Program-made: the position numbers and the translations under genes
Notes under the pieces: model-generated
What the model was told of the DNA's origin: nothing
Databases searched by the model: none
What the model saw: only the letters and a program-made list of their open reading frames with translations
Shown: positions 5,039 to 63,887 of the stretch, piece after piece
Layout: each line of letters opens with the position of its first letter
Numbering within the stretch: the stretch's first letter is position 1
Assembly (NCBI GenBank): GCA_041658625.1
Contig: JBAZZW010000002.1
Span: forward strand, 538,851 to 602,850
From: Actinomycetota bacterium
Lineage (GTDB): Bacteria; Actinomycetota; JAHEXW01
Reading direction: 5' to 3'
Length of the DNA stretch: 64,000 nucleotides

Positions 5039-5040
5039 CA

Positions 5041-5064: not shown

Positions 5065-5070
5065 TTACTT

Positions 5071-13028: not shown

Positions 13029-13070
13029 CTGTTTATCGGTTTTGGGTTTCTCGTTTTTAGGAATAATTGC

Positions 13071-13118
13071 AACCAGACTCATAATCCGCGGCAAGTTCGA
13101 GTCCTGCTGTGTTCCCCA
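13071..13118 (+). other. second tRNA-like 3' fragment (CTCATAA loop-like segment, T-loop TTCGAGT, terminal CCCA); no 5' acceptor strand
   Basis: Read directly; GGCAAGTTCGAGTCCTGC resembles a T-arm; lies just downstream of the HEPN-motif gene. Confidence 0.25.
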
Positions 13119-13192
13119 AACAGGAGCTAATAAAAAGGCCGACTCCAATAAACAGACGTCTCTTCTCCTATTAGTTCATGTTTATCGCCTTG

Positions 13193-13591: not shown

Positions 13592-13650
13592 TTTCGTTTG
13601 CTTCAGTCTTCCGTTATCTTCATATATATCAACAATATATCATATTTCAT

Positions 13651-14472: not shown

Positions 14473-15382
14473 TGGTTGGGTTCCCCCTCCCTACGTTCAT
14501 CATGGCAATATAGTCTCCGTCAATCGATTTGCTGACGAGTTTCGCCATTTCAAGTACCACCAAAATACTACTTACTTTTCCACATTGCAAGCCCGTTTCA
14601 TAAATAATTTTTGTTATCGCTTTTGGAGTTCCTTCTATCGCAGATAACACGGCATTTTCTTCTGCTGTTAGAGTTCCTCTAAAATGACTAATATCTACTT
14701 TGCCTTGTCCTTTTTCTGATTTGCTTGTAGGTATTTCAAGTTCTTCCAGGATGTCCTCGGCGGATTCAACTAAACAGGCTCCTGCTTTTAGAAGCTTGTT
14801 TGGAGTTGCGCTGTTCCGACTGGTAACTGATCCGGGTAGCGCGTAAACGTCTCGACCCTGCGACAAGGCCATATCAGCTGTAATTAGCGTCCCGCTTCTG
14901 GCCGCGCCCTCAACGACCAAAACGCCTATGGACAATCCGCTGATAATCCGGTTTCGCGAGGGAAAATGGTCGCCGCGAGGTTGGGTACCCGGGGGATGCT
15001 CACTTACAAGAGATCCGGCCGAAGCGATCGCTCTTTGCAGTTTCCGGTTGACTGCCGGGTAGTAAACGTCTGCTCCGCAGCCAAGGACGGCCACGGTTCC
15101 GCCTCCGCCGTCCAAGGCGCCCCGATGAGCGGCGGCGTCAACACCTTCTGCCAGACCACTAATTATCAACATTCCATTTTCGCTTAACTCTCGAGAGATT
15201 GAGTAGGCCATATCAAGCCCGTACTTAGTCGCCCTTCTGGAGCCCACAACAGCAAAACCGGCCCGATTGTCCCTGTTAACTGTGTTGATAAGATTCCCGA
15301 CAACATAGAGTTTCTCCGGCGGATCAGGAATCAGTCTCAGCATTTCCGGGTACCGCGTATCGGTTTTTCTAAGAATCATCAA
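14465..15382 (-). CDS. dprA: DNA-processing protein DprA (Smf family)
   Basis: 305 aa; Rossmann-like core VVGSRRATKYG...SGLAEGVDAAAHRGAL...VAVLGCG. Confidence 0.85.
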   Translation of the reverse strand: MMILRKTDTRYPEMLRLIPDPPEKLYVVGNLINTVNRDNRAGFAVVGSRRATKYGLDMAYSISRELSENGMLIISGLAEGVDAAAHRGALDGGGGTVAVLGCGADVYYPAVNRKLQRAIASAGSLVSEHPPGTQPRGDHFPSRNRIISGLSIGVLVVEGAARSGTLITADMALSQGRDVYALPGSVTSRNSATPNKLLKAGACLVESAEDILEELEIPTSKSEKGQGKVDISHFRGTLTAEENAVLSAIEGTPKAITKIIYETGLQCGKVSSILVVLEMAKLVSKSIDGDYIAMMNVGRGNPTNE

Positions 15383-16921: not shown

Positions 16922-17300
16922 TTACCGCGTTCCGGACGTGTTCGAGGTTTCTAATGCGGCCGTCATGTGACATCAAGATTGAGATAACGTCAATGCGCGT
17001 GTCTTCAAACATCGATCGAAGATTGTTTATCCCACCGTAAGTCAGATATCCATCCGCCAGCTTCAACAACTTTTTACGCTTCTTTTTATCTACGGCCTCG
17101 AATGGCTCGCCGACCGTGTTCCCGGATCTTGTTTTTACTTCAACGAAAACTAGAGTCTTGTCTTTGGCTGCGATTAAGTCGAGCTCGCCGACCTTAGTCC
17201 TATAATTACGTCCAAGAATTCGATAGCCTTTACGACGGAGATAGTCTGCGGCAAGAGATTCCCCTAGTCGTCCGAGGGCGTGGTCGTTTCTTTCATTCAT
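16908..17300 (-). CDS. yraN: YraN-family (UPF0102) endonuclease-like protein
   Basis: 130 aa; GESLAADYLRRKGYRILGRNYRTKVGELDLIA...VFVEVKTR motif. Confidence 0.8.
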   Translation of the reverse strand: MNERNDHALGRLGESLAADYLRRKGYRILGRNYRTKVGELDLIAAKDKTLVFVEVKTRSGNTVGEPFEAVDKKKRKKLLKLADGYLTYGGINNLRSMFEDTRIDVISILMSHDGRIRNLEHVRNAVIDDR

Positions 17301-17368
17301 ATTGATAATGTGTCAAATATTCTCTAATCTGTCAAGTTATATTTGACATTATTTGAGATATTGGAAAG

Positions 17369-17815
17369 TTAATTAAGTCTAGCGGCGTATTCCTCGAGGG
17401 TCATTATGTCGGTGAGACCGCGGACGACCCTGGCGAGCTTTTTATCCGCTGTTATAAGTCGGAGTCCTTCAAGGTCGGCTTGGGCGACGAAGTAGGCGTC
17501 ATAGACTGTTATGCCCGCCTGCATCGCTAACTCGATCGCTACGTGCAAAACATTTGAGTCAAATGCTATAGTTGGCAGGCCTTCGTCTTGAAGAGCTTGA
17601 ATCGCGCGATTAATCTCTCTTGGCTTGTCAATACTCGACCATCGCAAACCATTCGCGATTTCATAGAAAGAGAGCTCGGTAATAGCCGTTAGGATTCGGC
17701 CTTTGTTGATGGCCGCTTTAAGCCATAGGGCCTGATAAGAGTCTTCTTCCTCAAGGAACCATTTTATTAGTATGCTTGAATCCAAGAGAATAGGTGTGCT
17801 GCTTTTATTTGCCAA
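17369..17815 (-). CDS. vapC: PIN-domain toxin VapC-like
   Basis: 148 aa; N-terminal ILLDSSILI strand with conserved Asp, later acidic residues (DAYF, ITAD); overlaps upstream antitoxin by 11 nt. Confidence 0.7.
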   Translation of the reverse strand: MANKSSTPILLDSSILIKWFLEEEDSYQALWLKAAINKGRILTAITELSFYEIANGLRWSSIDKPREINRAIQALQDEGLPTIAFDSNVLHVAIELAMQAGITVYDAYFVAQADLEGLRLITADKKLARVVRGLTDIMTLEEYAARLN

Positions 17816-18068
17816 TAGGACCTCTCATCGCGCGGATAATCTCTGTGGAATCACCATGCCAATGGCCTTTTGTCGACTCTCGTATTTCATCCATTATCTT
17901 GCCTGCCTGTTTTCGGCGGGCTTTCAGTTCCTTTTCGTTCTTCCTCTCTTCTATCCCGGCGCGAATATACTCACGGATAATCTCGCTCCGCGATCTGGAT
18001 TCTTCTTTTGCCGTTTGATCGAGCTCATTAATATATGCGTCGGGCATGGTCAGAATAATCCTGGACAT
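17805..18068 (-). CDS. vapB: ribbon-helix-helix (CopG-like) antitoxin VapB-like
   Basis: 87 aa; N-terminal RIILTMPDAYINELDQTAKEESRSRSEIIREYI is a classic RHH fold signature. Confidence 0.65.
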   Translation of the reverse strand: MSRIILTMPDAYINELDQTAKEESRSRSEIIREYIRAGIEERKNEKELKARRKQAGKIMDEIRESTKGHWHGDSTEIIRAMRGPIGK

Positions 18069-18124
18069 TGTTACCTCCTCTTGAATGATATCTTTCTGGT
18101 ATCAATTGTATATCTCTTGTTTGT

Positions 18125-18146
18125 ATCAGGCAATACATTGCCTGAT
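18125..18146. promoter_or_regulatory. 10-2-10 inverted repeat ATCAGGCAAT-AC-ATTGCCTGAT about 57 nt upstream of vapB-like start; candidate TA operator
   Basis: Read directly; a second palindrome CCTCTCCCC-GGA-GGGGAGAGG lies at 18183..18203. Confidence 0.3.
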
Positions 18147-18471
18147 TATGATCAGCAAATATATTTGGCCCCTCACCTCAATCCTCTCCCCGGAGGGGAG
18201 AGGCAGTAACAAAACTCGAGCACCTATTCTGCGAGTCAAGACTGAGGGTGGGCGGGAGCCTCGAACATGGGTTTCCTTGAAGTTTTTCGCGCCGCCAGCC
18301 GCCGATTAATATAAAGGATCGAGCATGCGGACATTCCACGACTCGAGCGGAGAGCATTGTTTGCTCGCCGTGGCGACCTGAAACACGGGGTCAGGCCCTA
18401 TCTCATAAGAAGAAAGGGCCTGACCCCATAGCACTAACGATGGTAGGCCGCGAGCGGCATGCTCGTCTATT

Positions 18472-18933
18472 TTACCGGCGGGTTGTGCTTAGTGTTTTGT
18501 ATTCTTTTTGCGAGATGAGGCGGCGGGAGTGGGCTTCTTTGAGAATCCAGCGGGAGTCGTTGACTTCCAGGTCGGCGGACATTAGGTCTTCCCTCGCCCG
18601 CCGGTCGTCTGTGATAAGCGTGTATAGGTGGGTTAAGGCAAGAGCGGCGGAGTCGCGCTCGCCGGCGTGCATGAAATCGGTTTTGTATTCGGCAATCACG
18701 CGATCCTCGGCGGGGCTTACGTCAATTGTGCGGATCCTTCCGGCGGCGAGGTCGCGAGTGAAATCTTCTTTCCCGGGACCGAAGCCGTGGTACTCAAACT
18801 CTCGTTTGACCCGCTCGGCAACTGTTATGCCGCCTAATACGCGGTGGAGAATGTCAGGCCGGCCCAGATGGCAGTAGAACTTCATTAAGACGTCGGTATC
18901 GACGATATATCCGTTCTGAGTCATTTTACTCAA
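18472..18933 (-). CDS. PIN-like domain protein (putative nuclease/toxin)
   Basis: 153 aa; YIVDTDVLM N-terminal strand and GERDSAALALTH...LITDD acidic motifs. Confidence 0.45.
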   Translation of the reverse strand: MSKMTQNGYIVDTDVLMKFYCHLGRPDILHRVLGGITVAERVKREFEYHGFGPGKEDFTRDLAAGRIRTIDVSPAEDRVIAEYKTDFMHAGERDSAALALTHLYTLITDDRRAREDLMSADLEVNDSRWILKEAHSRRLISQKEYKTLSTTRR

Positions 18934-19495
18934 AAGGGCGTGCTTCTTTTTGCACTTCAGCCCACTCTTTATCTAGTTCCAATTCTGTAATCCAATGAGA
19001 AATATATTCTTCGTCCAAGTCACCGTACTGAACTTCGTAAACGCGTATTGCATCGACGATTTGTTTTCGGCTACCTGCGGATAGCTTTGACCATTGAAGC
19101 TTGACTAGAATCGTATCCTCCGGGCTGGCTACGCTAATGCCAACTCCCGCGAACTCTTCGAGCCGCCGACGCTTGAAACGTGAAAGATCAAAGGGTTTGT
19201 CGGTCAAGAGCCAGAAGTCGGCTTTGTCACCTGTTTCGGTATCTATCAGGTTGAACATCGTCGTTGCTTCGATGGCTTGGCTGATGGCTTCCGGATCAAG
19301 ATAAAACCGAGGTCCGGGAAAAGCTGTAACAAGCGAATCTATGTCGTTTTTCTTAATATTGACTACTACGTCCACGTCGTGGGTGGCCCTAGGCTCTCCG
19401 TAAAGGCTTGACGCAATCGATCCTGATACGAAATAGTTGATGCCTGCTTTATAAAGAGCGCTGCATATCTCTACTAGTAGTTGTTGTTGCGACAT
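18926..19495 (-). CDS. nucleotidyltransferase-fold protein (Pol-beta-type GS...DxD motif)
   Basis: 189 aa; GSIASSLYGEPRATHDVDVVV minimal NTase motif; 8-nt overlap with downstream PIN-like gene. Confidence 0.45.
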   Translation of the reverse strand: MSQQQLLVEICSALYKAGINYFVSGSIASSLYGEPRATHDVDVVVNIKKNDIDSLVTAFPGPRFYLDPEAISQAIEATTMFNLIDTETGDKADFWLLTDKPFDLSRFKRRRLEEFAGVGISVASPEDTILVKLQWSKLSAGSRKQIVDAIRVYEVQYGDLDEEYISHWITELELDKEWAEVQKEARPFE

Positions 19496-19691
19496 CGTTC
19501 GATAATCTCCCTCGAGCGGTTTGTCAGTTCTTCGTCAGAATACTGAGGATAGCGCCTTCTTAGCCCCTGCATGAGAAGCCTATCTGACAAATCTGTCAAC
19601 TCAAAAGCCTTGTCTAGTCTTTCTTGTGGAGTCATACGGCGAAGTGTTTTTATGTAAATTGCGTGATTGGGGCGCGGTTTTAATTCCATTT

Positions 19692-20030
19692 CTACCGGAC
19701 TTTTGTGAGTTCGCGGGCGGTGGTGCGCTGGCCGCAGTTGGGGCACTTAAGGTACTTCCAGCTTCCCGACTTGTTAACGCCTTGAAAACTAAAGAGGTCT
19801 TTGAGCATCGATATTTCAAAGTCTTCGTCGCAGTTGGCGCAGCGATAGCCGAAGGTTCTGGCATGCCAGCGGACCAGAAGTAACAAGCAGCCGGCGACGA
19901 GGATGCCTCCGGTCAGCATGTTTTCCGGCCAGGACATAGCCAAGATGGCGATGATACCGACGAGGAAAATGCCGACGAGGATGAAGGTTTGGATGGCGTC
20001 TGATTTGTTGGGTTCCCTTAGTTTAACCAT
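19692..20030 (-). CDS. small membrane protein with C-terminal zinc-ribbon (CxxC...CxxC)
   Basis: 112 aa; two TM helices then CANCDEDF...CPNCGQ. Confidence 0.45.
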   Translation of the reverse strand: MVKLREPNKSDAIQTFILVGIFLVGIIAILAMSWPENMLTGGILVAGCLLLLVRWHARTFGYRCANCDEDFEISMLKDLFSFQGVNKSGSWKYLKCPNCGQRTTARELTKVR

Positions 20031-31516: not shown

Positions 31517-32482
31517 CTATTCCCTTCTTCCCTTGATGTTTGCTCTTGGATGCGTGCTCATGTATTCCTCTTTCAGGTGATCCTTGGCCACGTGCGTATA
31601 GACCTGCGTCGTCGAGATCGAGGCGTGGCCTAACATCTCCTGAACCGCGCGCAGGTCGGCGCCTCCTTTAAGCAGATGCGTAGCGAAACTGTGTCGCAGC
31701 GTATGTGGCGTCAACTCCGGAAACCCGGCTTTGCCTCCCTGATTCTTTATCGTCTTCCACATTGTCTGGCGGCTCAAGCCGCGCCCTTGTCTGTTCAGAA
31801 ACAGATGATCGTCGCGAGTCTTTCCGACGAGTTTTGGACGGCCGCTCATCAGGTATTTCTGCACCGCTCTGACCGCCGTTCCGCCGACCGGAACCAGACG
31901 TTCTTTTGAACCTTTGCCGAATACCCTCACGAACCCCTCTTCCGAGTCCAGGTCGCCCATTGTCAAGCCCGCCGCCTCGGAAACGCGTAAGCCGCTCGCG
32001 TACATAAGCTCCAGGATGGCCTTATCTCGCCAGCCCCGTGGCGTTTCCGGAAAGTCTCCGTCAAGCAGCTTGGCCACGTCCTCTATTGATAAAACCCTTG
32101 GCAGACGTTGGCTTTTTTTAACGTTAGCCACCGTTGCCATCGGATCGTTTGTTTGATAACCCTCTCTGACCAGGAACTTGAATAAGCCTCGGATAGCCGC
32201 GTGAGCCCTTCCGACCGACGCGGCGTTTAACGGAGTCCCTTCGGCCGTAAACGCTCCGTCGGCTAGTTCCCGGGAGTAGTCCAGGATATGCGTCTTAGTC
32301 ACGTCCGAGAAATCGGTTATGCCCGCGCGCCCCAACCAGCGCATGAAGTTATTCAAATCAAGGGCATACGCTGAGGCCGTATTCTTGGCCAGACCTTTCT
32401 CCACCGAAAGAAAATTAAGGTACTCTCCGGCTTGGGCGGCCAGCTCCGGCGGGACCGGCAATTCTTTATTTCTCCCGTCCAC
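31517..32482 (-). CDS. xerD: site-specific tyrosine recombinase XerD
   Basis: 321 aa; C-terminal HTLRHSFATHLL...LGHASISTTQVYTHV with catalytic Tyr; downstream of NUDIX gene as in Actinobacteria. Confidence 0.85.
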   Translation of the reverse strand: MDGRNKELPVPPELAAQAGEYLNFLSVEKGLAKNTASAYALDLNNFMRWLGRAGITDFSDVTKTHILDYSRELADGAFTAEGTPLNAASVGRAHAAIRGLFKFLVREGYQTNDPMATVANVKKSQRLPRVLSIEDVAKLLDGDFPETPRGWRDKAILELMYASGLRVSEAAGLTMGDLDSEEGFVRVFGKGSKERLVPVGGTAVRAVQKYLMSGRPKLVGKTRDDHLFLNRQGRGLSRQTMWKTIKNQGGKAGFPELTPHTLRHSFATHLLKGGADLRAVQEMLGHASISTTQVYTHVAKDHLKEEYMSTHPRANIKGRRE

Positions 32483-52737: not shown

Positions 52738-52806
52738 TGTATTTATAATAGGATGTTATTATCGGCAAGCCAATAAGAATTTGGCAATCGAACGGAAGGA
52801 GAGAAA

Positions 52807-53745
52807 TTGGAAGCGACAGTCGAAGCCGGTCAGAGACCGCCTCTGGCCAAAGTGTTGTTCCTGGAGACAAGGCCGCAGTTCTTAACTCTTATCCCCTGCG
52901 TGCTAACCCCGGGCGTCGCGCTGGCTTATGCCGGCGGGCATTTTAACTGGGCGCATTTAATTCTTGCGCTGATCGGTTCGTTGTTGGTACACATATCGGT
53001 TAACGTACTGAATGACTATACCGACTGGGTGCGCGGTACTGACAAACTGGTCCAAAGGACGCCTTTCTCGGGCGGCAGCGGATTAATCAAGGCCGGCATG
53101 ATTTCCCCGCGAATGGTGCTTATTGAAGGCGTTGCTGCTTTATGTTTGTCCCTTGTAATCGGCATCTATTTTGTGTATCTGTATCCGGTCCTCTTATGGT
53201 TCGTGGTAGGCGGTGCATTGCTGACCGTGTTCTACACGCCGGTGTTGACCAAGACTGTCATCACGGAGATCTTCCCGGGCTTAGGTTTCGGCGTCATCCC
53301 CGTTATCGGCGCTTACATCGTAATGCAGCCGGTCGGCAAGGTCGCGATTACCCCGGAAGTCATCTGGCTTAGCATCCCCGCCACCATCCTCGTGTCGGGA
53401 CTCCTTTGGATAAACGAGATTCCCGACATCCAGGCGGACAAGGCCACCGGTCGGCGTCACGCGGTCCTGTTGATGGGCACACAGAAAGCCGCTTGGGGTT
53501 ACGTCGCTTTGTTGGTCATGACCTACGTCTCGATAGTAACGCCGATCGCCCTGGGCATCCTGCCTGTCTGGTGTCTGGCAGGCTTATTGACCATACCCCT
53601 GGCCGTAAAAGCCGGAACCGGCGCGGTCAAGAACCACGACAGCATCGAGGGCATAACCCCGGCGCTCGGCCAGAACATTTTAACCGTTCTCGCCACTCCG
53701 GTGCTATTGGCCATCGGCTTGGTTGTCTCCAAACTGGTCGGATAA
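52807..53745 (+). CDS. UbiA-family prenyltransferase (MenA-like)
   Basis: 312 aa; NVLNDYTDWVRGTD Asp-rich motif, about 8 TM helices. Confidence 0.8.
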   Translation: MEATVEAGQRPPLAKVLFLETRPQFLTLIPCVLTPGVALAYAGGHFNWAHLILALIGSLLVHISVNVLNDYTDWVRGTDKLVQRTPFSGGSGLIKAGMISPRMVLIEGVAALCLSLVIGIYFVYLYPVLLWFVVGGALLTVFYTPVLTKTVITEIFPGLGFGVIPVIGAYIVMQPVGKVAITPEVIWLSIPATILVSGLLWINEIPDIQADKATGRRHAVLLMGTQKAAWGYVALLVMTYVSIVTPIALGILPVWCLAGLLTIPLAVKAGTGAVKNHDSIEGITPALGQNILTVLATPVLLAIGLVVSKLVG

Positions 53746-53845
53746 GTTTCACAGTATATTCACAAACGGTTCACGGGATATTCTTGTGAGCCCTTGATAA
53801 TGGGCATTAGAGGTAGCCAAGGCTACCCCGCCCATCAGACAAAAG

Positions 53846-53886
53846 AAAAAGAGCAGGATAACAGACCACCTGCTCTTTTTCTTTTA
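53846..53886 (+). terminator. rho-independent terminator candidate after UbiA-family gene
   Basis: AAAAAGAGCAGG / CCTGCTCTTTTT inverted repeat with 12-nt loop, followed by CTTTT. Confidence 0.5.
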
Positions 53887-53955
53887 GCTGAAACTCCTAC
53901 TATGATACAATCATTACAAACATTTCGACCTTACCCGAATATCGAGAGACGGCAA

Positions 53956-56172
53956 ATGCCAAAAGTCAGTATAGTCATAACGTGTCATAACCATGGACGG
54001 TTTTTACCATTTGCGATAAAGAGCGCGATCTCGCAGACATATAAGGACTTTGAAGTTATTGCCGTGGATGATGGGTCCACCGACAATACAGCCGCTGTTT
54101 TAGTGAAATATGAAAACGACCCGCGATTCACAATAATACACCAGGAAAGAAAAGGACCTGCGTCGGCTCGTAACCTCGCCATTGAGCAGGCAAACGGCGA
54201 TTTCATCCTGCCCCTGGACGCAGACGATATTATAGAAAAGAACATGCTCGAAGAAACCGTGCCGGTTCTGGAGAAGAATCCAGATCTTGGTGTTGCATAC
54301 ACCCAATGGAAGACTTTTGGCGATGTCATCAAATTGGTTTTGCCAATCGAGTACAACTTTTTGGTCCTCGCCTATCATGCCAACTTCATTCCCGGGTGCT
54401 CGCTTTATCGTAAACAAGCCTGGAAAGAAGCTGGCGGATACAACACTGATATGGAATATGGAGGTGAGGCCTGGGATCTATTTGTCAGAATGGGCGAAAA
54501 AGGTTGGTGTGGTGGGTTAGTGTCTAAGACACTATTAATGACTAGAATCCATTCAGAATCAATGCAGGGTTTATCTGACAAGCATAAACAAGACATAATC
54601 AACCAGGTTGTCGCGAATAACAAAGACGTATACTCAAAGAATGTCGAAGCGAAAGACTGGTTTGAGGCAAAGCAACTAGCCCGTGAAAACAGATATCCAT
54701 TTTCTGATGTACCAATACCCGAGCTTAACGATGTATTAATAAAAAACTTGGCTTGGCCGAAACCTGCGAGTGCTCCAAAGGTCAGCATTATTATCCCCTG
54801 TTATAACCAGGCCGACCTGCTTGATGAGGCAGTTAATAGCGCTCTATGCCAAACCTATCAGTCGTTTGAGATCGTGATCGTCAATGACGGCTCAACGGAT
54901 AACATTGGTGAAGCGCTAAAGAAACATGCAAATAATCCAAAAATACATATCATCAACCAGGAGAATCAAGGAGTGGCAAGTGCAAGAAACAATGCAATTC
55001 TGACAGCTGGGGGCGAGTATATTTTGCCTCTTGATGCCGACGATATGATTGAACCTACATACCTCGAAAAGACAGTTGCCTCCCTCGACGCAGAAGAAAA
55101 AGCTGGAATTGCGTATACATACATTAAGTTCTTTGGCAACGCAGAAAGAGAAATACAACAAATTGACTTTGATTTCATGGTTCTGGCCTATCATGGTAAT
55201 TTTATGACATGCACATCTTTGTTTAGAAAGACAGCCTGGGAAGATGCGGGTGGCTATAACCCAAACATGAGGTATGGATATGAAGATTGGGATCTATGGC
55301 TTGGAATTTCCGAACGGGGTTGGGGTGTTACATTTGTGAAGGAACCACTGATCCACTATCGCCAGACTGAAACATCCAGGTCTGATGAAGCACACAGACA
55401 TCTCCCTGAGCTATACCGCCAGCTGATTGCGAATCACCCTATCACGTACGCTCAACCTCTTGCCGAGAAGAAATGGCTACGCTTTGTGAAACAGGTTAGT
55501 GATGAGACGCGTTTTCCTATCGGAAATGCGACATCTCCATGTTTTCAGACCTATATAGATAACATCATTTTTGAACCAGTCGACAAGCCGGATGTAAGCG
55601 TCATCATCACTTGCGATCACCGTGCCAATACAATTATGGAGAGTGTCAGGAGCATCCTTTTCCAGGATTACCGCAGCTTCGAGATAATAATCGTTGATCT
55701 AGGAATAGCTGGAGACGCTAAGGGTGAGCTTGAAAAGCTAAAAGCAAATCCACGTGTTGCGATCATTGATGCGACTTTTTCGAGAGACTTGATATCATCT
55801 ACCAGCAAAGCAGTTTCAGGAGCGCGAGGTAAGTATATATTGATGCTGAGTAATGGTGATGTAGTACACAAAACATTGCTTAGTAAAGCAACGCGAGAGT
55901 TCAATAAAAGAACCAAACTAGGCATTGTCTATGCGAATGAACAAGAACGCAATGGAGAAGAGGCTGCAAGAAAAATCCAGTATAGCTACGCTGCCCTAAA
56001 GCGCCAAAATTATATTGGGCGACACGCAGTTTTTAGCAAGCATGCCTGGCTGGAAGCGGGCGGCTTTAAGAAGGAGACTCTGAATCCTGACATTCTATGG
56101 GGCCTATGGCTAAGAATGGGCGACCTTGGCTGGGCGGGGAAATTGATTGATGAACCCCTGGTGCTTCAATAA
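53956..56172 (+). CDS. multi-domain family 2 glycosyltransferase (three tandem GT-A domains)
   Basis: Start at ATG 53956 (MPKVSIVITCHNHGRFL), downstream of the terminator; GT2 signatures at SIVITCHN...VIAVDDGSTD, SIIIPCYN...IVIVNDGSTD and SVIITCDH...IIIVDLG. Confidence 0.8.
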   Translation: MPKVSIVITCHNHGRFLPFAIKSAISQTYKDFEVIAVDDGSTDNTAAVLVKYENDPRFTIIHQERKGPASARNLAIEQANGDFILPLDADDIIEKNMLEETVPVLEKNPDLGVAYTQWKTFGDVIKLVLPIEYNFLVLAYHANFIPGCSLYRKQAWKEAGGYNTDMEYGGEAWDLFVRMGEKGWCGGLVSKTLLMTRIHSESMQGLSDKHKQDIINQVVANNKDVYSKNVEAKDWFEAKQLARENRYPFSDVPIPELNDVLIKNLAWPKPASAPKVSIIIPCYNQADLLDEAVNSALCQTYQSFEIVIVNDGSTDNIGEALKKHANNPKIHIINQENQGVASARNNAILTAGGEYILPLDADDMIEPTYLEKTVASLDAEEKAGIAYTYIKFFGNAEREIQQIDFDFMVLAYHGNFMTCTSLFRKTAWEDAGGYNPNMRYGYEDWDLWLGISERGWGVTFVKEPLIHYRQTETSRSDEAHRHLPELYRQLIANHPITYAQPLAEKKWLRFVKQVSDETRFPIGNATSPCFQTYIDNIIFEPVDKPDVSVIITCDHRANTIMESVRSILFQDYRSFEIIIVDLGIAGDAKGELEKLKANPRVAIIDATFSRDLISSTSKAVSGARGKYILMLSNGDVVHKTLLSKATREFNKRTKLGIVYANEQERNGEEAARKIQYSYAALKRQNYIGRHAVFSKHAWLEAGGFKKETLNPDILWGLWLRMGDLGWAGKLIDEPLVLQ

Positions 56173-56175
56173 CTA

Positions 56176-56838
56176 TTACTTTCGTACTTTTCGTGCAACA
56201 ATGCAGGCTACAGCTTGGACATAGCCATTTGAAACAGAATCAATATCGAGCAAGTCTGTTTTTGTTGCCGGAATCCAGTGGAGCCTTTCTAGGCCTTTAA
56301 AATACTTTTCTTTTTCTATTGTGAATCCATCAAGCAACGATACCAGCGCTTCATCGTCATATACTCTATACCAACTTGATTGCATCCTTCTCCCAAACGG
56401 GATAGTCAGAATGAACATACCATCGTTTGTTAAAACTCGGCTTATCTCTTGAACTACCTTAAAGTCACCATTGCTAAGAGGCTCTTCTCCATAGGCGCCA
56501 AGTCCGCAGTGCTCAATTGCTGAAACTGCACTTACAACGTCGAAAGAACCGCTTTGAAAGGAGTCTTTCAGAAAATCGCCTTTTACGAATTCGAAGTTTG
56601 GATGCTTAAGATCGTAATCTGTTAAGTCAACTCCTACTACTCTATGCCCCAGACTTGCTAGTTCAATAGGAAGTCGGCTTCTAGCGCAACCAAAGTCAAG
56701 AATCCGCAATTCCTGATTGCTCGGAATATTTTGAAAAACGAATGGAATCTCGACAATTCTTTCATTTGTAAGAAGTTGATCTGAAGGACCATCGTAATAT
56801 ATTGACTCTTCAAAAAGGGATTTTAGGTCTTTATCCAT
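56176..56838 (-). CDS. class I SAM-dependent methyltransferase
   Basis: 220 aa; motif I ILDFGCARSRLPIELASLGHRVVGVD. Confidence 0.75.
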   Translation of the reverse strand: MDKDLKSLFEESIYYDGPSDQLLTNERIVEIPFVFQNIPSNQELRILDFGCARSRLPIELASLGHRVVGVDLTDYDLKHPNFEFVKGDFLKDSFQSGSFDVVSAVSAIEHCGLGAYGEEPLSNGDFKVVQEISRVLTNDGMFILTIPFGRRMQSSWYRVYDDEALVSLLDGFTIEKEKYFKGLERLHWIPATKTDLLDIDSVSNGYVQAVACIVARKVRK

Positions 56839-56958
56839 GCTCCAAACTTAATATAGCAAACAGTGGCTGTCAACATAGCTTGTAAGAAATGTTACTTTTA
56901 TGGATAATTGAAAGTAATTTCATGTCAGCGCGTTGATCTCTTTATTTGGGTATGTTCA

Positions 56959-59355
56959 ATGACGAGAAAAGGAAAAAAGAGGCTAAATCTTGGGTGTGGG
57001 CCGGATATCAGAGAGGGCTTTATAAATGTTGACGCACGGTCACTTCCCGGCGTCGATCTAGTTTCTGATGTAAGGAAGCTGCCTTTCCCTAAATCAAGTA
57101 TTTCGGAAATTGTCGCTATCGATGTACTTGAACATTTGTCTAGACTTGAAGCGCCTGAGGCGCTTAGATATTGGGTTTCACTTCTAACCAAAGAAGGATC
57201 GATCTTTGTTCAATCACCAGATATCCGATTGCTAGCAGAGGTTATTGAAGATGACGATGAGCTTTCGCGAAGACTATACGGGGATCAGGATTATCCCGAG
57301 AATCTCCATAAAAGTGGGTTCACTTTATCGCGTCTTAGGGAATTATTAGAAGCTGAAGGCTTGAAGATCGTAAAAGGAACTTATATTAATGGGAATTTTA
57401 GAATTTGGGCTACCTATCCACGCTCAAGAATAAAAAAATGTCTTTGTCTCGGCAAAACCGATCCATACCCATCAGGTCAGATTCCAGATGAAACGCTAAT
57501 AGTTGAAGGACTAAAAGATAATGGGATCGATGTTGATTTCTATGATTATAAAGATTTCGACCCAGAATTAACTGATATCTACGATTTTGCACTACTAATT
57601 TATCATTACGACATTCCTCTTCAAGGGTATCGTTATCTTCTGGATCAAGTCGTTGCTGACAAGACCGCACTAATGACATTTGACTGGGTTCTATCTGAGG
57701 CGAGAAGAACTGGGTTTCTAGAGGTGGCGAGACTCTTCGACATTGTTTTTACAACAGACGATGTTGTTGACTGGCGTTCCTTGGGAGTGAACCAGGCAAC
57801 AATTCGACAAGGAGTTAGTTCACCTCATAAGCGCGGTCACAAGAGAAACGATCTCGATTTTGATATAGCGTTCATCGGCGGCCTAAATGACTCAAGCAGG
57901 GTTGAAAACCTTAGAACGATTATGAAGAAATATAAGGTCGCTCATTTTGATAATCAGGTAAATCAAGAATTTAGTTCCATCTATATGGGGCCTGCTCACA
58001 ATGAAAGGTTCTGTGATATATGCAGTTCAGCAAAAATCATTCTGGGCGGCGGTTTCCCTGAAACTACGAAGGGTTACTGGTCAAATCGTGTTTACATGGT
58101 CCTTGGATGTGGGGGATTCTTCCTTTCGCCATATGTTGAAGGTATGGAGAGCGAATTTGAAGATAAAAAGCACCTGGTTTTTTTTCGCTCAGAATCTGAA
58201 CTAGAAAAGAATGTTCAGTACTATCTAAAGAATGATGCCGAAAGGGAAAACATAGCTAGAAACGGAAGAGCGCTTGTGCATCAAGAGTATTCATACAAAA
58301 AGCGAACTAGAAGTTTGGTTAAAGAGATAAACGAAATGCGGCGCAAAATCGGTCTTGTGTCATACACTGAACGACAAAGCGGATTAGGCATTATGGCAAA
58401 TGAGCTAGTTGACAGCTTGAATATAACAAACATCCTATCGATAGACTCTGCCAAGGGGAAACGAGAAACTTGGAGAGAAAACCAAGTTAATGCCAACAAT
58501 CCACCGGATCAAGAATCCATATTTGAGTTTTTGTCACAGAATTTTAAGGTCCTACTCTTGCTGGAGACGCCGTTTAATCAACATATTCCGTATGTGGCAA
58601 AAAAAGCAGGCAAAAAGGTAGTCTGCTATGTTCACCATGAGTGGTTGCCACTAGATGCACCGTGGCTGCAATACGTTGATCTATTCTTGTGTCCAAATAG
58701 TATTGCCGAAGAGAAAATGAATAGTTATGTAAGAAAACAAGTCAATTGGCCAATCAATCTTTCCCAATATGAGTTTAAAAAAAGAGAGGGTCATGTCTTT
58801 ATACATAATGCTGGATATATTGGACCCTTTAATAGAAAAGGAACAGCTGATGTAATACAAGCTTTCTGTGCATCAAAGGCAGGAAAGCTGATTCTAAGAA
58901 GCCAAATCCCTCTAGAACAAGAGATTGATTTGGATCTTGTAAAAATGGCAAGAGATGATAGTCGTATAGATATCAGAATTGGCGCGCTTGATAACTATCA
59001 GGACTTGTTTAGCGAAGGTGACATTGCGTTACAGCCTAGCCGTTTTGAAGGATATGGGAGAGCAATAGCTGAGGCTATGGCTTCAGGCTTGGTAGTTGTA
59101 ACAACAGATGCTCCACCCATGAAGGACTTTGTCGGAGATTCTAAGCTTCTAGTCAAAGTGTCTTCAGAACAACCATTAAGATCCGGCCCATTTGACGCTA
59201 TATCATATGTACCAGACATAGATTCGATGACAGAGATAATTGATTCTTTGTCAAGATCAAGTGATATTGGAAAGTTTAGTCTCGAGGCCAGAGAGAGAAT
59301 TGAGTCAGGATATAGCCGGTGGGACAAAATAATTGAAATACTACAAAATGTCTAG
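56959..59355 (+). CDS. fusion protein: N-terminal SAM-dependent methyltransferase + central and C-terminal glycosyltransferase (GT1/GT4-like) domains
   Basis: Start at ATG 56959 (MTRKGKKRLNLGCGPD); MTase motif LNLGCGPD...AIDVLEHL; C-terminal EGYGRAIAEAMASGLVVVTTD typical of GT4. Confidence 0.7.
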   Translation: MTRKGKKRLNLGCGPDIREGFINVDARSLPGVDLVSDVRKLPFPKSSISEIVAIDVLEHLSRLEAPEALRYWVSLLTKEGSIFVQSPDIRLLAEVIEDDDELSRRLYGDQDYPENLHKSGFTLSRLRELLEAEGLKIVKGTYINGNFRIWATYPRSRIKKCLCLGKTDPYPSGQIPDETLIVEGLKDNGIDVDFYDYKDFDPELTDIYDFALLIYHYDIPLQGYRYLLDQVVADKTALMTFDWVLSEARRTGFLEVARLFDIVFTTDDVVDWRSLGVNQATIRQGVSSPHKRGHKRNDLDFDIAFIGGLNDSSRVENLRTIMKKYKVAHFDNQVNQEFSSIYMGPAHNERFCDICSSAKIILGGGFPETTKGYWSNRVYMVLGCGGFFLSPYVEGMESEFEDKKHLVFFRSESELEKNVQYYLKNDAERENIARNGRALVHQEYSYKKRTRSLVKEINEMRRKIGLVSYTERQSGLGIMANELVDSLNITNILSIDSAKGKRETWRENQVNANNPPDQESIFEFLSQNFKVLLLLETPFNQHIPYVAKKAGKKVVCYVHHEWLPLDAPWLQYVDLFLCPNSIAEEKMNSYVRKQVNWPINLSQYEFKKREGHVFIHNAGYIGPFNRKGTADVIQAFCASKAGKLILRSQIPLEQEIDLDLVKMARDDSRIDIRIGALDNYQDLFSEGDIALQPSRFEGYGRAIAEAMASGLVVVTTDAPPMKDFVGDSKLLVKVSSEQPLRSGPFDAISYVPDIDSMTEIIDSLSRSSDIGKFSLEARERIESGYSRWDKIIEILQNV

Positions 59356-59392
59356 AAACTCACCGGTATTTAAAAGCCAAGTTCTCTTGTTG

Positions 59393-59402
59393 CCCCCCCC
59401 CC
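59393..59402. repeat. homopolymeric C10 tract about 40 bp upstream of the hicB -10 box (TATAAT at 59441..59446)
   Basis: Read directly; a second tract C8T8 at 59889..59904 follows hicA. Confidence 0.6.
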
Positions 59403-59453: not shown

Positions 59454-59675
59454 ATGAAGAGCACATTTACTGCTGTTTTCGAGAAAACGGACGATTGGTA
59501 TATCGGCTATGTCGAAGAACTTCCTGGTGCCAACTCACAGGGAAAAACTCTTAACGAGGCGCGCGAAAACCTAAAGGAAGCTATAGAGCTTACCCTCAAA
59601 TCTAACCGCGAGATTGCCGAACGCGGCCTAACGGGCAAAAAGGTAATCAGGGAATCCATTCAGATAGCCGTCTAA
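59454..59675 (+). CDS. hicB: HicB-family antitoxin
   Basis: 73 aa; FEKTDDWYIGYVEELPGANSQGKTLNEARENLKEAIEL resembles HicB/UPF0150; -10 box only 7 nt upstream of ATG (leaderless-like). Confidence 0.65.
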   Translation: MKSTFTAVFEKTDDWYIGYVEELPGANSQGKTLNEARENLKEAIELTLKSNREIAERGLTGKKVIRESIQIAV

Positions 59676-59864
59676 ATGAAAAGGCGCGCTCTGCTAGCCC
59701 ATCTTAAGAAGCACAACTGCGTCCTGTTAAGACAAGGCGCACGTCATTCTGTGTTCATCAACACCGCGAACAATAAAGTCTCGACCGTCCCCCGACATTC
59801 TGAGATTGTCGATCTTCTTGCTAAGAAGATTTGTCGCGACCTCGAAATCCCCGCCCCTCTATAA
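59676..59864 (+). CDS. hicA: HicA-family toxin (mRNA interferase)
   Basis: 62 aa; LKKHNCVLLRQGARHSVFIN...HSEIVDLLAKKICRDL fits HicA/YcfA-like fold; start abuts hicB stop. Confidence 0.7.
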   Translation: MKRRALLAHLKKHNCVLLRQGARHSVFINTANNKVSTVPRHSEIVDLLAKKICRDLEIPAPL

Positions 59865-59988
59865 AAACATACCCTCTCCACTCAAGAACCCCCCCCTTTT
59901 TTTTGAGCTCGCAAAATATTCTTCGAGCGAGCGCTAATTACGAGCTTGCCCTGAGCTAGTCGAAGGGTCGAGAAGGGAGGGCGCCGCT

Positions 59989-60159
59989 CGCTGGACAAAC
60001 CCGGCTATGCTCTTTAATATTGTTTAAGTGCGAATACGGGTGATTAGCTCAGGGGGGAGAGCGCTTCCCCTGACACGAAACTCGTGTACCATGCCCAAGC
60101 CCCATCTCATCTGCAGGTATAACACTCTTTTGGAATCCGCCGTCGCTATGTAAGTGCAC
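59989..60159 (+). repeat. ~170-bp direct repeat, copy 1 (contains tRNA D-arm-like TAGCTCAGGGGGGAGAGCGC)
   Basis: Aligned by eye with copy 2 at 62542..62710; high identity over most of its length with a few indels. Confidence 0.6.
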
Positions 60160-60333
60160 AAAAAGCGAGCAATTGGAAGTTTGTCAATTGGAAGATTCCG
60201 AATCAGGCTTCTTTTTCGTTGCCGCTTCTTCTTCCTCGCGTTCCCATTTGGGCTTGATTCAATTCGGGACCTTGAACATCGTGAAGATTGCTAGGAAGAC
60301 GACAACTTGCCAATCTTAGTCTTGGATATTGCC

Positions 60334-60657
60334 TTAGACTACACGCTTGTAATATTTGAAACTCCCTCCAGTTGAAAGTATTGACCCCATCCAAGTACGT
60401 CGGTCGATTCCTGCTAATTCTTCATCACTTCTTGATGCCAAGTCGTCATACATCGCATAACCGAACAAAAATAGATACGATAACCCAAAACCGGCTGTAA
60501 ACGCAAACAAAGTAAAGAAAAGTGTTTCTATTGCGTCAGTTTTGTTCATCGCCATGAGAATTAAGACCACAGCAGCAATAATTGATGCTACGATGAGCGA
60601 GATTGTTCTCACGCGCTTTTGGAGTTTGCTGATTTTCATATTCGTATCATATTTCAT
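60334..60657 (-). CDS. small two-TM membrane protein, immunity-like (downstream of RHS remnant)
   Basis: 107 aa; start overlaps the RHS-fragment stop by 4 nt; two hydrophobic helices. Confidence 0.45.
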   Translation of the reverse strand: MKYDTNMKISKLQKRVRTISLIVASIIAAVVLILMAMNKTDAIETLFFTLFAFTAGFGLSYLFLFGYAMYDDLASRSDEELAGIDRRTWMGSILSTGGSFKYYKRVV

Positions 60658-61023
60658 ATTGCCCTAGTCTTCCCTTTATAATCCACACCTCGGCCGTTAC
60701 CGTGAATTGCAGAGGAGTTATTCCCGCAATAGAGATAAGGATTGAGCGCCAACCTGTCCGTCGCCTGCTGCGGCATAGCGTCCCGGGAGATGAACCTGCC
60801 GGTCGCAGGATTGTAATACCTGGCGTTTAAGTAATACATCCCGGTCTTGTTACCTGGGGTCAGGCCCTGTCGCTTAAGAGGAGAGGGCCTGACCCCAAAG
60901 CCGACCCAATGGATTCCCGAAGGTGCCTGTCGCAACGATATTCTTGGCTGTCAAGTTGCTTCCGTCCCAGACCCAGGCATATTCCGTCGGGTTCCCCCGG
61001 GCGTCATAAGCCCAGCTCCGTCA
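60654..61023 (-). pseudogene. RHS/YD-repeat protein C-terminal remnant (frameshifted), ending in a short C-terminal tip
   Basis: ORF 60654..60935 encodes MYYLNARYYNPATGRFISRD...NPYLYCGNN (RHS core end); upstream a different frame encodes YDARGNPTEYAWVWDGSNLTAKNIVATG; no intact N-terminal RHS body. Confidence 0.55.
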
Positions 61024-61202
61024 TGGCGTCATCCTGGGCTCCGTGTCTTCTAGGAGCGCAGGAACTCAGACGCTGCTATTCATTCAAGTATAATCGTGCC
61101 CTGAGAGTCAAGACCTTGCCGCCAAGACATCCCCATGATTATTCAAAACACAATAATGAGTGATCCAGTACTTGACTTTTCACATGCAATATTGCATTAT
61201 GA

Positions 61203-62453
61203 ATGCAATGCTGTAAAAAGGAGACGCGCGTGCCTAAGCATTATATAGAACGAACAATTGAGCCTTTACTGTTGCGATCGTCGCAAGAGTCACCCGCCAT
61301 CGTTCTGACCGGCCCCAGACAGTCAGGCAAAACGACGCTCCTTAAGCATGTCTTCTCCAAAACTCATCGATATATTTCCCTTGATCTGCCGGACGTCGCA
61401 GCGTCGGCGACCGCCGACCCGCGAGGTTTCCTCGATATAAATCGTCCGCCGGTAATCTTCGACGAGATCCAGTATGTACCCGGACTCCTTCCTTATATAA
61501 AAGAGCTTGTCGACGCAGACAGGCAGAGTATGGGCCGGTTCATTCTTACGGGTTCACAGAACTTGATGTTGCTCAACAGCGTGACCGAGACTCTAGCCGG
61601 GCGAGCCGCACTCTTGCGTCTCCTGCCTCTCTCATATAACGAGGCGCTCGGTCGTCCGTTGACTTCTCTGCCGTGGGAGTCGAAAAAGAGCCATGAGATC
61701 TTGCCTGAGCTTACGCATTCCAACCTCTACCAGAAGCTCATCATCGGGTCTTTTCCGGAACTCGTTGCCACTCCTAAATCCGATCCGACAATCTGGCAAG
61801 GCAGCTATATCCAAACATATCTTGAACGCGACGTGAGAAGCTTAAGACATATCGGCGATTTGTCGACCTTCCAGAACTTCTTGCGGGTCATCGCAGCGCG
61901 CTCGGGTCAGCTGTTCCAGCTTGCTGATGTATCTCGCGACCTGGGTGTCGCTTTCAACACGGCTAAGCAATGGCTCTCCATTCTGGAAGCCACCTACCAG
62001 GTCGTGGTCGTACGACCGTATTTCGAGAACGTAGGTAAACGGCTTGTCAAAACGCCGAAGGTTTACTACCTCGATACAGGGCTCTTGGCATATCTAGCGC
62101 AGATACGCGACGCGGATCAAGCATCTACAGGCCCTTTCAGCGGTGCGTTCTTTGAGACTGCGGTCTTGGCCGAGCTTACCAAGAGCTATGTTCACAGAGG
62201 GAAAGAGGCCCGGATCTTCTTCTGGCGCACAGCGGCCGGCAAAGAAGTCGATTTCGTGATAGAGGTCGGCGGGACATTGATTCCGATTGAGGTCAAAGCA
62301 TCAGCAACCCCGCGCCCAGAGATGACGACTGGCTTGCGTTCATTTATGGAAGACTACAGCCCTAGGGCAAACAAAGGTTATGTCGTACACCCGGGCAATA
62401 TCCGACTACCGCTCGCGCCGGACATCGAAGCCTTACCGTTCGCCCTTCTGTGA
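61203..62453 (+). CDS. AAA+ ATPase with C-terminal DUF4143-like domain
   Basis: 416 aa; Walker A LTGPRQSGKTTLL, Walker B VIFDEIQ, C-terminal region typical of this ATPase family. Confidence 0.7.
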   Translation: MQCCKKETRVPKHYIERTIEPLLLRSSQESPAIVLTGPRQSGKTTLLKHVFSKTHRYISLDLPDVAASATADPRGFLDINRPPVIFDEIQYVPGLLPYIKELVDADRQSMGRFILTGSQNLMLLNSVTETLAGRAALLRLLPLSYNEALGRPLTSLPWESKKSHEILPELTHSNLYQKLIIGSFPELVATPKSDPTIWQGSYIQTYLERDVRSLRHIGDLSTFQNFLRVIAARSGQLFQLADVSRDLGVAFNTAKQWLSILEATYQVVVVRPYFENVGKRLVKTPKVYYLDTGLLAYLAQIRDADQASTGPFSGAFFETAVLAELTKSYVHRGKEARIFFWRTAAGKEVDFVIEVGGTLIPIEVKASATPRPEMTTGLRSFMEDYSPRANKGYVVHPGNIRLPLAPDIEALPFALL

Positions 62454-62541
62454 CGACTCTTTGGCTTATCTTAAAAGTTCACTTCGATTTGGGGAATATC
62501 TTATAGATTTCTGACACCGCTATGTTCGCGAAGGATTTGCC

Positions 62542-62710
62542 CGCTGGACAAACAAGCCTATGCTCTTTAATATTGTTTAAGTGCGATTACGGGTGATTAG
62601 CTCAGGGGGAGAGCGCTTCCCTGACACGGAATTCGTACACTGACTTCATTCCCCTTCCCATCTGCAGGTATAACACTCTCTGGGAATATATAGCGCGTCC
62701 GTAAGTGCAC
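62542..62710 (+). repeat. ~170-bp direct repeat, copy 2
   Basis: Aligned by eye with 59989..60159; followed at 62738..62793 by a tail element that also occurs at about 5925..5980. Confidence 0.6.
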
Positions 62711-62909
62711 CGTAAGTGCTATTGAGGTAACAAAAAAGCTGGCTTCCCGGGTTATACGTTTTTCGCACACTTAGGATTTTGCATAAAGCCAGCTGAGAGT
62801 GGCTTCTTGTTGCATACGGGGGCGTAGATCACGCAAATCCGGGCGCCGACGCCGTAAAAACCTTACGCTTCACAACCTGGCCTTATAGGCAAGAAAGGGC
62901 ATTTAAACG

Positions 62910-63887
62910 TTACTGTGACTTCTTGATAAATTCTCGAATTGGCTCAAACTGTTGATAGTCAAAAGCCGCAATATGATAAGGCAATGCGCTCAAGGAGCTA
63001 CATGAATCGTCTAAATGGTTCTCCACATAAGAATTTATTAACATATCTAAAGTGTCATCCATGTTGACGACATCCATGTAGTACGGATCAAGTTCCTTAC
63101 CCGTTTCATAGATATTCAAAAACCGCCCCTTCGAGTCAACGTGATTAGCGTAGAAAGCACCTATACCTATTTTGGCAGCTGAAATCTTCTCGTAACGGTC
63201 CTTGAATCCTCCGAACACCCGTGGCTCCAGATGCCGAAACTTCCATATTCGAAATTCCCCGGTTTTCATTGTTAAATCTCTCAATTCTGCAACTATTTTG
63301 AGGAATCCTTCGCGAGTCCTTTCTGAAAAAGCCTTAATAATAGTTCCCGATTCTTCTCTTTTGACAATATCATCCGGAGCAATAACGTTCGTCCTTGAAA
63401 AGACAGATTGTGTAATATCATCTATCAATAGACAACACGTTTTCAGGTATTCCGGATTGTCAGTCGAGTGTCGAAAAACATCTGAGATTCCTGGGATCAA
63501 ATCATATATATATCCAAGCTCCTCACTTTTCTCAACACAAGCATCGATCAATTCAAGCATATTTGTGTCGCTTAGGTTTGAATGAATGACTAGCTTCATA
63601 GCGTCCCAATGACCTTCGTAGTCTGAAAAAAGACAGAGTCCACGTAAGAACCAAGACTCCTTGATGTTTGGATTTTCATCAATGATTTCTTCCAAGATCG
63701 CATTGGCCTTTTTGAAGTCTCCGAACGACATATAGGTTCTGGCTATATCAATATTCCTGCCACCCTTTTTTGTGGCCGAGTCAAACTCAAGTGCTGAATC
63801 ACAATAGGGGCATCTTGTTATACTGGCATTCGATGCTGGATCGAGTTGACCACCACAGCTGGGGCAGGAAAGCTTTCGTACCTCCAT
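62910..63887 (-). CDS. hypothetical protein with N-terminal zinc-ribbon (CPSCGG...CPYC) and helical (TPR-like) region
   Basis: 325 aa; AT-rich gene; no family recognised. Confidence 0.5.
   Translation of the reverse strand: MEVRKLSCPSCGGQLDPASNASITRCPYCDSALEFDSATKKGGRNIDIARTYMSFGDFKKANAILEEIIDENPNIKESWFLRGLCLFSDYEGHWDAMKLVIHSNLSDTNMLELIDACVEKSEELGYIYDLIPGISDVFRHSTDNPEYLKTCCLLIDDITQSVFSRTNVIAPDDIVKREESGTIIKAFSERTREGFLKIVAELRDLTMKTGEFRIWKFRHLEPRVFGGFKDRYEKISAAKIGIGAFYANHVDSKGRFLNIYETGKELDPYYMDVVNMDDTLDMLINSYVENHLDDSCSSLSALPYHIAAFDYQQFEPIREFIKKSQ

Follow-up and report, generated by a model that had tools for sequence, protein, structure and literature searches.

The stretch of DNA analysed in this work consists of 64,000 nucleotides (nt) of an Actinomycetota bacterium (assembly GCA_041658625.1, contig JBAZZW010000002.1, positions 538,851 to 602,850 of the forward strand) and is called the window. 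It contains two direct repeats, R1 (left copy) and R2 (right copy), that bound a 2.4-kb cassette (cassette C). Each repeat is a unit that consists of a promoter, the 5' part of a transfer RNA (tRNA) gene for valine with the anticodon GAC, tRNA-Val(GAC), and a degenerate arm (X). Both units are non-functional pseudo-tRNA genes that were copied from the genome's own tRNA-Val(GAC) gene unit. The units are also places of DNA exchange, because two otherwise identical strains hold the cassette and a neighbouring 15-kb module (module Z) in different orders, A-C-Z-tRNA and A-Z-C-tRNA. As for their origin, we lean towards the reading that the units are relic attachment junctions of islands of the 5'-fragment tRNA type, which have since been reshuffled by (probably homologous) recombination.

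R1 is located at 59989..60159 on the plus strand (profile match 59990-60171, E = 2.6e-54) and forms the left edge of cassette C. R2 is located at 62542..62720 on the plus strand (profile match 62543-62738, E = 2.1e-59) and forms both the right edge of cassette C and the left edge of module Z. The repeat search paired 59986-60056 with 62539-62609 at 93% identity and 60068-60136 with 62619-62687 at 77% identity. The global alignment of 59989-60159 and 62542-62710 has 146 identical columns out of 178 (82%), with 45/49 identical positions in the promoter and leader, 40/44 in the tRNA-like part, and 61/85 in the distal part. The longest exact run common to both units is 29 nt. Three long sub-motifs of the units occur twice each in the 64-kb window, where shuffled sequences are expected to give 0 occurrences. 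No third copy was found in the window using a profile from all known copies, and no older, weaker units were found by profile search at the TatD/UbiA boundary. The sequence-only reading of this DNA, which had described two highly similar copies in the same orientation, is confirmed on this point. The string GGGTGATTAGCTCAGGGGGAGAGCGC that it had quoted for each copy is exact in R2 but differs by one extra G in R1.

The promoter of the units is sigma-70-like. The consensus scan identified TGGACA, a spacer of 17 nt, and TAATAT at 59992..60020 in R1 and at 62545..62573 in R2, both on the plus strand. The R1 site is homologous to the promoter of the functional tRNA-Val gene in contigs L015, L001, and L017, the last being from a relative. 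The tRNA-like part begins about 18 nt 3' of the -10 box. It consists of the acceptor 5' strand (GGGTGAT), TA, the D arm (GCTC-AGGGGGA-GAGC), G, and the anticodon stem-loop (CTTCC-CTGACAC-GGAA) of tRNA-Val with the anticodon GAC, and the similarity of the units to the tRNA ends after the first 4 bases of the 3' anticodon-stem strand. In R2, this part is located at 62591..62632 (plus strand), its first 41 nt are those of the functional tRNA-Val(GAC), and the complete anticodon stem-loop is retained. In R1, it is located at 60038..60081 (plus strand) and, when aligned to the functional tRNA-Val, exhibits one additional G (D loop) and one additional C (stem), and its 3' stem strand is degenerate.

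The arm X is a degenerate sequence of about 80 nt that takes the place of the variable loop and the T arm. The X arm of R1 (X1, 60082..60159, plus strand) is without a T arm and contains the 21-mer CATCTGCAGGTATAACACTCT at 60108-60128 and one GTAAGTGCAC at 60150-60159. The X arm of R2 (X2, 62633..62720, plus strand) contains the exact same 21-mer at 62659-62679 and two GTAAGTGC motifs that are 11 bp apart (62701 and 62712). X holds one or two GTAAGTGC motifs depending on the unit. The heptamer TAAGTGC is also present in the leader, so that it stands on both sides of the tRNA-derived core, and the sites in the units represent five of its eight occurrences in the window. Shuffling of R2 yielded any 7-mer three times in 18 of 5000 shuffles. 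The identity between the copies is about 91% up to the anticodon stem and then falls sharply to about 72%, and the identity to the functional gene likewise falls sharply there. In four left contexts that are unrelated to one another, every unit has its sharp left edge at the -35 box. We have also considered X as the decayed 3' half of the strain's own tRNA. This candidate was rejected, as the similarity is not significant against the strain's own flank and is moderately significant against the L017 flank alone.

ARAGORN called no tRNA in the window, and neither unit qualifies as a functional tRNA gene, which would need a cloverleaf with a T arm and a paired acceptor stem. None of the 4,227 Rfam families matched the window at gathering scores. 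The permissive scan (E up to 10) matched R2, without a T arm, to the tRNA family RF00005 at 23.6 bits (gathering score 29), gave no tRNA match for R1, and returned otherwise only chance-level matches. The folding z-scores of the units range from -0.6 to +0.5 and are no better than those of shuffled sequence. The acceptor-like pairing of R2 (6/7) is not kept in R1. Because there is no tRNA call, no Rfam match at threshold, folding at the level of shuffles, and no conserved acceptor pairing, the units are regarded as pseudo-tRNA genes and not as a structured RNA family. The tRNA-like core that had been noticed by eye is thus genuine, and the Infernal/Rfam check that had been proposed for both copies recovers it below threshold in R2 and not at all in R1. 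The proposed alternative of a structured small RNA family is not supported, and the copies are found at this locus only.

A related explanation is that the units encode a functional small RNA or a tRNA mimic, where the anticodon arm of a promoter-driven transcript would serve in regulation or as a decoy, for instance to divert an anticodon nuclease. The intact -35 and -10 boxes in both copies and the far better conservation of the promoter and the 5' 41-44 nt compared to X are in its favour. However, recombination with the functional gene also explains the conservation of the 5' part, no terminator is present at the units, and the Rfam scores, the folding, and the loss of acceptor-like pairing in R1 described above also oppose it. 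We consider this explanation very improbable.

The wider locus was reconstructed from contigs of the same organism in four metagenome samples (ERZ27249422, ERZ27247322, SRR8449812, and JGI 3300028032/3300028028) that were recovered by exact-protein look-ups, and all evidence concerns one population. Contigs L002, L003, and L005-L007 match the window at 99.99-100%, and L015 and L022 are companion contigs that show the far end of module Z. In these two same-strain contigs, the functional tRNA-Val(GAC) gene is located about 15 kb beyond R2, outside the window, under the same promoter. It is followed immediately on its 3' side by a tyrosine integrase gene, the product of which has phage-integrase SAM-like domains at its N-terminus, and then by an HTH_17 excisionase-like gene. 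An identical integrase is attributed by one source to an Actinomycetota metagenome-assembled genome. The order in the window strain is HicBA, R1, cassette C, R2, module Z, tRNA-Val, and integrase, and independent assemblies of three samples have this window-type order. Three direct-repeat units (R1, R2, and the functional tRNA-Val) bound two integrase-less modules, C of 2.4 kb and Z of 15 kb. The more distant relative represented by L017, with an integrase that is 64% identical, exhibits TatD, the promoter and tRNA-Val, and the integrase with no insert upstream of the tRNA. The interval from TatD to tRNA-Val is about 27 kb here, compared to nothing inserted in L017. The inserted segments all have a guanine-plus-cytosine (GC) content of 44-50% compared to 55.5% in the core, and the island that extends for more than 20 kb on the far side of the integrase is similarly low in GC.

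The alternative order of the modules was identified in contig k141_126100 (155.9 kb, sample ERZ27247322), the flanks of which are otherwise 100% identical over more than 25 kb in total. In this contig, the gene for a 325-amino-acid protein adjoins HicBA with a single unit between them. This single unit is a hybrid, the left part of which is R1-like and the remainder R2-like. The contig is without 60160..62541 at the site of the window and thus represents an empty site. Cassette C, with an identical ATPase gene, is found at a distance of 15 kb, with another unit on one side and the intact tRNA-Val and integrase on the other. The order in this strain is HicBA, R, Z, R, C, tRNA-Val, and integrase. 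The flank on the window side is 100% identical over 10.9 kb. The flanks on the integrase side (about 11 kb) and the Z side (about 4 kb) exhibit a few mismatches and gaps, which are the differences already mapped inside the units. The cassette interior (2.5 kb) is 100% identical between both arrangements, and all nine differences are within units. No further arrangement was found when HicB and the 107-amino-acid open reading frame (ORF) of the cassette were used as probes. The findings agree with the earlier suggestion of an integrated or recombined cassette between direct repeats of a tRNA 5' region, and the proposed comparison of related genomes for 60160..62541 gave the expected outcome, since a near-identical strain lacks the segment, keeps a single hybrid repeat, and carries the same cassette elsewhere between units. 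The repeats are tRNA-derived as suggested, with the refinement that they are whole pseudo-gene units (promoter, 5' part, and degenerate 3' arm) and that the cassette is without its own recombinase.

The order in k141_126100 could be explained by a chimeric join across the repeats in one metagenome assembly. The alternative order is known from this single contig, and Logan contigs break within units. However, the longest exact run between units is 29 nt, which is far below the final k of 141 that is implied by the contig name. The hybrid units also carry allele combinations, a promoter variant, and a single-nucleotide polymorphism (SNP) that are absent from the window-type sequence, and for this reason the hybrid-unit k-mers must be in the reads. 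An assembly artefact is therefore extremely unlikely.

The variants within the units allow the exchange to be located. The promoter heptamer (CCGGCTA, AAGCCTA, or AAGGCTG) always travels with the flank on its left. The nucleotide that precedes the tRNA (gcgaA or gcgaT), the length of the G run of the D loop (5 or 6), and that of the C run of the stem (3 or 4) always travel with the X type and the right-hand cargo. Since the heptamer follows the left flank and the other variants follow the X type, the exchange is placed within the 26-nt identical promoter stretch TGCTCTTTAATATTGTTTAAGTGCGA. Tyrosine integrases of this kind that target tRNA genes cross over at the anticodon loop. As the exchange points map to the identical promoter stretch and not to the anticodon loop, the recent exchange was most probably carried out by RecA-type homologous recombination between units, as judged from the distribution of these alleles. 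Such recombination would duplicate, delete, or move modules.

One reciprocal exchange between the two orders was tried as an explanation and fails in both directions. In front of its functional tRNA, the promoter of the alternative strain differs by a 4-nt variant, and there is also one SNP. Because of these two differences, a duplicated intermediate or gene conversion is required. The intermediate may have had the order A-C-Z-C-tRNA, from which each lineage would have lost one copy of C by unit-by-unit deletion. This path, the intermediate step of which is inferred, accounts for all alleles.

With regard to the origin of the units, their layout is best read as an attachment site whose element-borne part would be the promoter and the tRNA 5' portion. 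The ancestral islands would have inserted upstream of tRNA-Val, bringing their own promoter and 5' part and displacing the 5' fragment of the host. X would be the element-side arm with TAAGTGC arm-type sites, and the integrases of the ancestral elements would since have been lost. X1 is collinear with the tRNA 3' end and the integrase-side flank of L017 with moderate significance (z = 3.7, 15/3000 shuffles). X2 gave z = 2.6 (68/3000 shuffles), and collinear similarity is also present in L019. The integrase-side arms have two 8-9-mers that are 11 bp apart (TTTGCCAAC or TGCTAACA). Two GTAAGTGC motifs that are 11 bp apart are present in X2 and in the unit of L009, a contig from a related strain, at a distance equivalent to that in the integrase-side arms. 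The relic-junction reading is preferred because of the empty L017 site, the low-GC inserts, the sharp left edge, the drop of identity at the anticodon stem, the collinearity of X, the 11-bp motifs, and the flanking TAAGTGC sites.

Several findings weigh against this reading. No integrase or integrase remnant was found by tblastn and Pfam in C, in Z, or beside X1 and X2. The family of the resident integrase behaves classically in L020, where a 40%-identical member is associated with a 51-bp repeat of the 3' part of tRNA-Met that bounds 4.7 kb. The arm motif of the resident integrase, TTTGCCAAC, differs from that of X and is absent from the units, so that an action of this enzyme on the units would be hypothetical. 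The statistics for the similarity of X to the flank and for TAAGTGC (15/3000, 68/3000, and 18/5000) are modest and were noticed post hoc. Related units outside this population were found neither in species-representative genomes nor in viral contigs. Exact scans for the 21-mer CATCTGCAGGTATAACACTCT gave no match in these two sets and three metagenome matches, one of which is a chance coding match (L008), and the doubled arm motif was not found in viral contigs. No tRNA-Val fragment that would mark the far end of the integrase island was found within 20 kb. The placement of the recent exchange in the promoter part and the failure of one reciprocal exchange are also unfavourable, as is the restriction of the evidence to one population in four samples.

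Some of these findings suit a serious rival, in which a plain tandem duplication of the tRNA-Val gene, its promoter, and a short flank was followed by decay. The copies would have lost the T arm, cargo would have accumulated between them, and homologous recombination would have shuffled the modules without any integrase ever being involved. The weak homology of X to the tRNA 3' end and the downstream flank, the modules with no integrase inside or beside them, and the exchange points consistent with homologous recombination are all in line with this rival. However, the cargo must have entered twice, exactly between units. Duplication also leaves unexplained why identity drops abruptly at the anticodon stem (about 91% before it, about 72% after it), the common sharp left edge at the -35 box, the same-strand TAAGTGC sites around the core, and the 11-bp tandem spacing that recurs in the integrase-side arms. 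We consider plain duplication unlikely on this balance, while it deserves to be taken seriously.

Another explanation is that the array is a live cassette platform. The units would be recombination sites for a trans-acting tyrosine recombinase, either the one adjacent to the tRNA or one encoded elsewhere, that excises integrase-less modules, such as a candidate defence gene or a cluster of surface-protein genes, and reinserts them at any unit and, in detail, might recognise TAAGTGC arm sites on both sides of the tRNA-derived core. Both the platform and this mode of recognition appear improbable to us, and more so than duplication. The precise permutation of module order in otherwise identical strains, the arm-type-like motifs on both sides of the core, the integrase and the excisionase-like gene that abut the array, and the whole anticodon stem-loop kept in R2 would fit such a platform. 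However, the arm motif of the resident integrase is missing from the units, and the exchange interval, which is not the anticodon loop, lacks any obvious inverted-repeat core. Only two modules are present, and homologous recombination explains the products equally well. If the platform were real, the next unit, and in the end the essential tRNA, would be expressed from a promoter supplied by each module on insertion. The relic junctions of 5'-fragment islands remain our preferred origin for the units.

Cassette C consists of three genes. The first is the 107-amino-acid ORF with two hydrophobic helices (60334..60657, minus strand, from the ORF list), which overlaps the stop of the neighbouring RHS fragment by 4 nt. 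It has no Pfam, NCBIfam, or PADLOC family and is putatively immunity-like, as inferred from its position alone. The second is an orphan RHS-associated core fragment (60654..60935, minus strand) that matches TIGR03696 at 50.8 bits (cutoff 32.5, E = 1.7e-13). The core domain is present and the shell is absent, and the upstream frame is broken by stop codons, which makes it a fragment and not a full member. The third encodes an AAA_14/DUF4143 ATPase (Pfam) of 407 amino acids from a GTG start (61230..62453, plus strand), and the exact product is found on three contigs. The ATPase matches PADLOC PDC-S01 (PDLC04790) full-length (residues 1-407, E = 4.7e-115), which places it in this candidate defence family. 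The inventory of an RHS remnant, an immunity-like gene, and an AAA-DUF4143 ATPase in the sequence-only reading is in accordance with these assignments. The DUF4143 ATPase family includes 5,541 proteins at E <= 1e-80 with about 60% identity, the carriers of which span unrelated phyla (Competibacter, Bryobacteraceae, Dehalococcoidia, Polyangia, and others). This spread suggests frequent horizontal transfer of a single-gene module.

The first gene of module Z encodes a zinc-ribbon/TPR-like protein of 325 amino acids (62910..63887, minus strand), and the module runs past the end of the window. The remainder of module Z (L004 1-10978 and L001 1-8748, GC 46%) contains about a dozen paralogous zinc-ribbon (DZR) proteins, an 837-amino-acid sigma-70/zf-HC2/PD40/Tricorn_N fusion of the sigma/anti-sigma type, and a TPR/LITAF-like protein as the last gene. 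To the left of the first unit, both strain types have the same fixed neighbour, a HicB-like and HicA toxin-antitoxin pair (59454-59675 and 59676-59864, plus strand). The two adjacent genes match UPF0150 at 34.7 bits (cutoff 27.3) and HicA_toxin at 29.5 bits (cutoff 27), both above the Pfam cutoffs.

The region between HicA and R1 (59880-59990) contains a C8/T8 tract followed by a 56-nt element (core 59920-59975). This element recurs at 98% identity in L009 (7687-7742), in another place near UbiA, and might represent a terminator-like element or a small repeat of intergenic DNA. The glycosyltransferase/methyltransferase cluster after UbiA (52800-59400, 44% GC) varies by strain, as seen in L009 1400-8900. 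The UbiA of L009 is only 80% identical, its transferases form another set, and its unit is preceded by an NTase/HEPN pair in the place of HicBA. Much of the first 20 kb of the window (1-20000) has 45-51% GC compared to 55.5% in the core, and this part may be another acquired region.

The ORF of the resident integrase (L001 11451-12578) reaches to 16 nt from the tRNA 3' end and is about 20 amino acids longer than in L017. The tandem TTTGCCAAC motifs (L001 11493-11512) are thus inside the 3' coding end of the integrase. The low-GC island on the far side of the integrase (more than 20 kb) is represented by L022 1-19000 (969-kb contig Ga0265292_1000002). Its genes encode an MmeI-like type IIG restriction-modification protein, PIN, DUF4145, and radical-SAM/SPASM proteins together with small ORFs, and a 992-amino-acid protein with a metallo-beta-lactamase fold and weak Apyc1-like matches. 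Relatives of the integrase in species-representative genomes reach only about 26% identity and are uninformative, and none were found in viral contigs. The sole tyrosine recombinase in the window (31517-32482, minus strand) has about 25-30% identity to the island integrases and appears Xer-like, with a housekeeping role suggested by its context.

The locus is a tRNA-linked genomic-island hotspot that exhibits real but fairly ordinary plasticity of a bacterial genome. No new mechanism is revealed. It provides a natural example of relics of a tRNA gene, including the rarely seen type with a promoter and a 5' fragment, that are still recombination handles long after the loss of their integrase. 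Through these relics, a candidate anti-phage gene and a 15-kb surface-protein module change place in a population that is uncultured and otherwise clonal, and the functional tRNA-Val depends on a promoter copy carried along with the cargo. For annotation, islets of this sort will escape island finders that demand an integrase or a 3' fragment.

The cassette resembles orphan pairs of an RHS C-terminal fragment and an immunity gene, in which a small membrane ORF follows, and overlaps, the end of a truncated RHS core. In contrast to such pairs, about 20 residues follow the core motif here with almost no toxin domain, and the immunity role is assumed from position. The array resembles an integron (IntI, attI, and attC) in its integrase-less modules, repeated recombination sites, adjacent tyrosine recombinase gene, and variable order. 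However, an integron is defined by an IntI-type integrase with adjacent attI and by cassettes that end in attC sites. Here, there is no IntI-type integrase, the modules are only two, and the array adjoins the integrase gene on its 3' side. Sites of the attC type were not identified, where attC-type folding of the units was not specifically tested. The tRNA-Met island of L020 is similar to the locus in that its integrase abuts an intact tRNA and the identity block ends at the anticodon loop. The tRNA-Val relatives of its integrase family have the tandem 11-bp-spaced motifs in the integrase-side arm. The L020 island duplicates the 3' part downstream of the tRNA, whereas the units of the window duplicate the promoter and the 5' part upstream.

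The closest comparison is with islands that carry a 5' fragment of the tRNA gene (tDNA). Islander lists 159 islands with a 5' tDNA fragment compared to 3,760 with a 3' fragment (159/3,919) (PMC4383910), and islands that integrate upstream have been reported in Klebsiella (10.1101/2020.11.02.365908). By the Islander definition (PMC4383910), such an island has an intact cognate tDNA at one end, a 5' fragment in the same orientation upstream of it, and an integrase between them. Here, the intact tRNA-Val(GAC) is at the end of module Z (L015 and L022), outside the window, both units start at tRNA position 1, and the sole integrase is beyond the tRNA. The evidence for mobility, a site that is empty in a close relative (PMC4383910), is provided by k141_126100 with its one hybrid unit. 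The locus differs from the 5'-fragment islands (PMC4383910) in that no integrase is present in either interval, the repeat adds a promoter and a degenerate 3' arm, and the latest exchange is in the promoter and not in the anticodon loop. It resembles them in the intact tRNA at one end, the upstream fragments in the same orientation that extend from tRNA position 1 into the anticodon region, the low-GC cargo between them, and the functional gene under a promoter copy that travels with the cargo. Lastly, the locus resembles tandem island arrays at one tRNA gene, in which recombination at the att repeats deletes or rearranges islands, in that three direct-repeat units here bound two modules and strains differ in presence, absence, and order exactly at the repeats.

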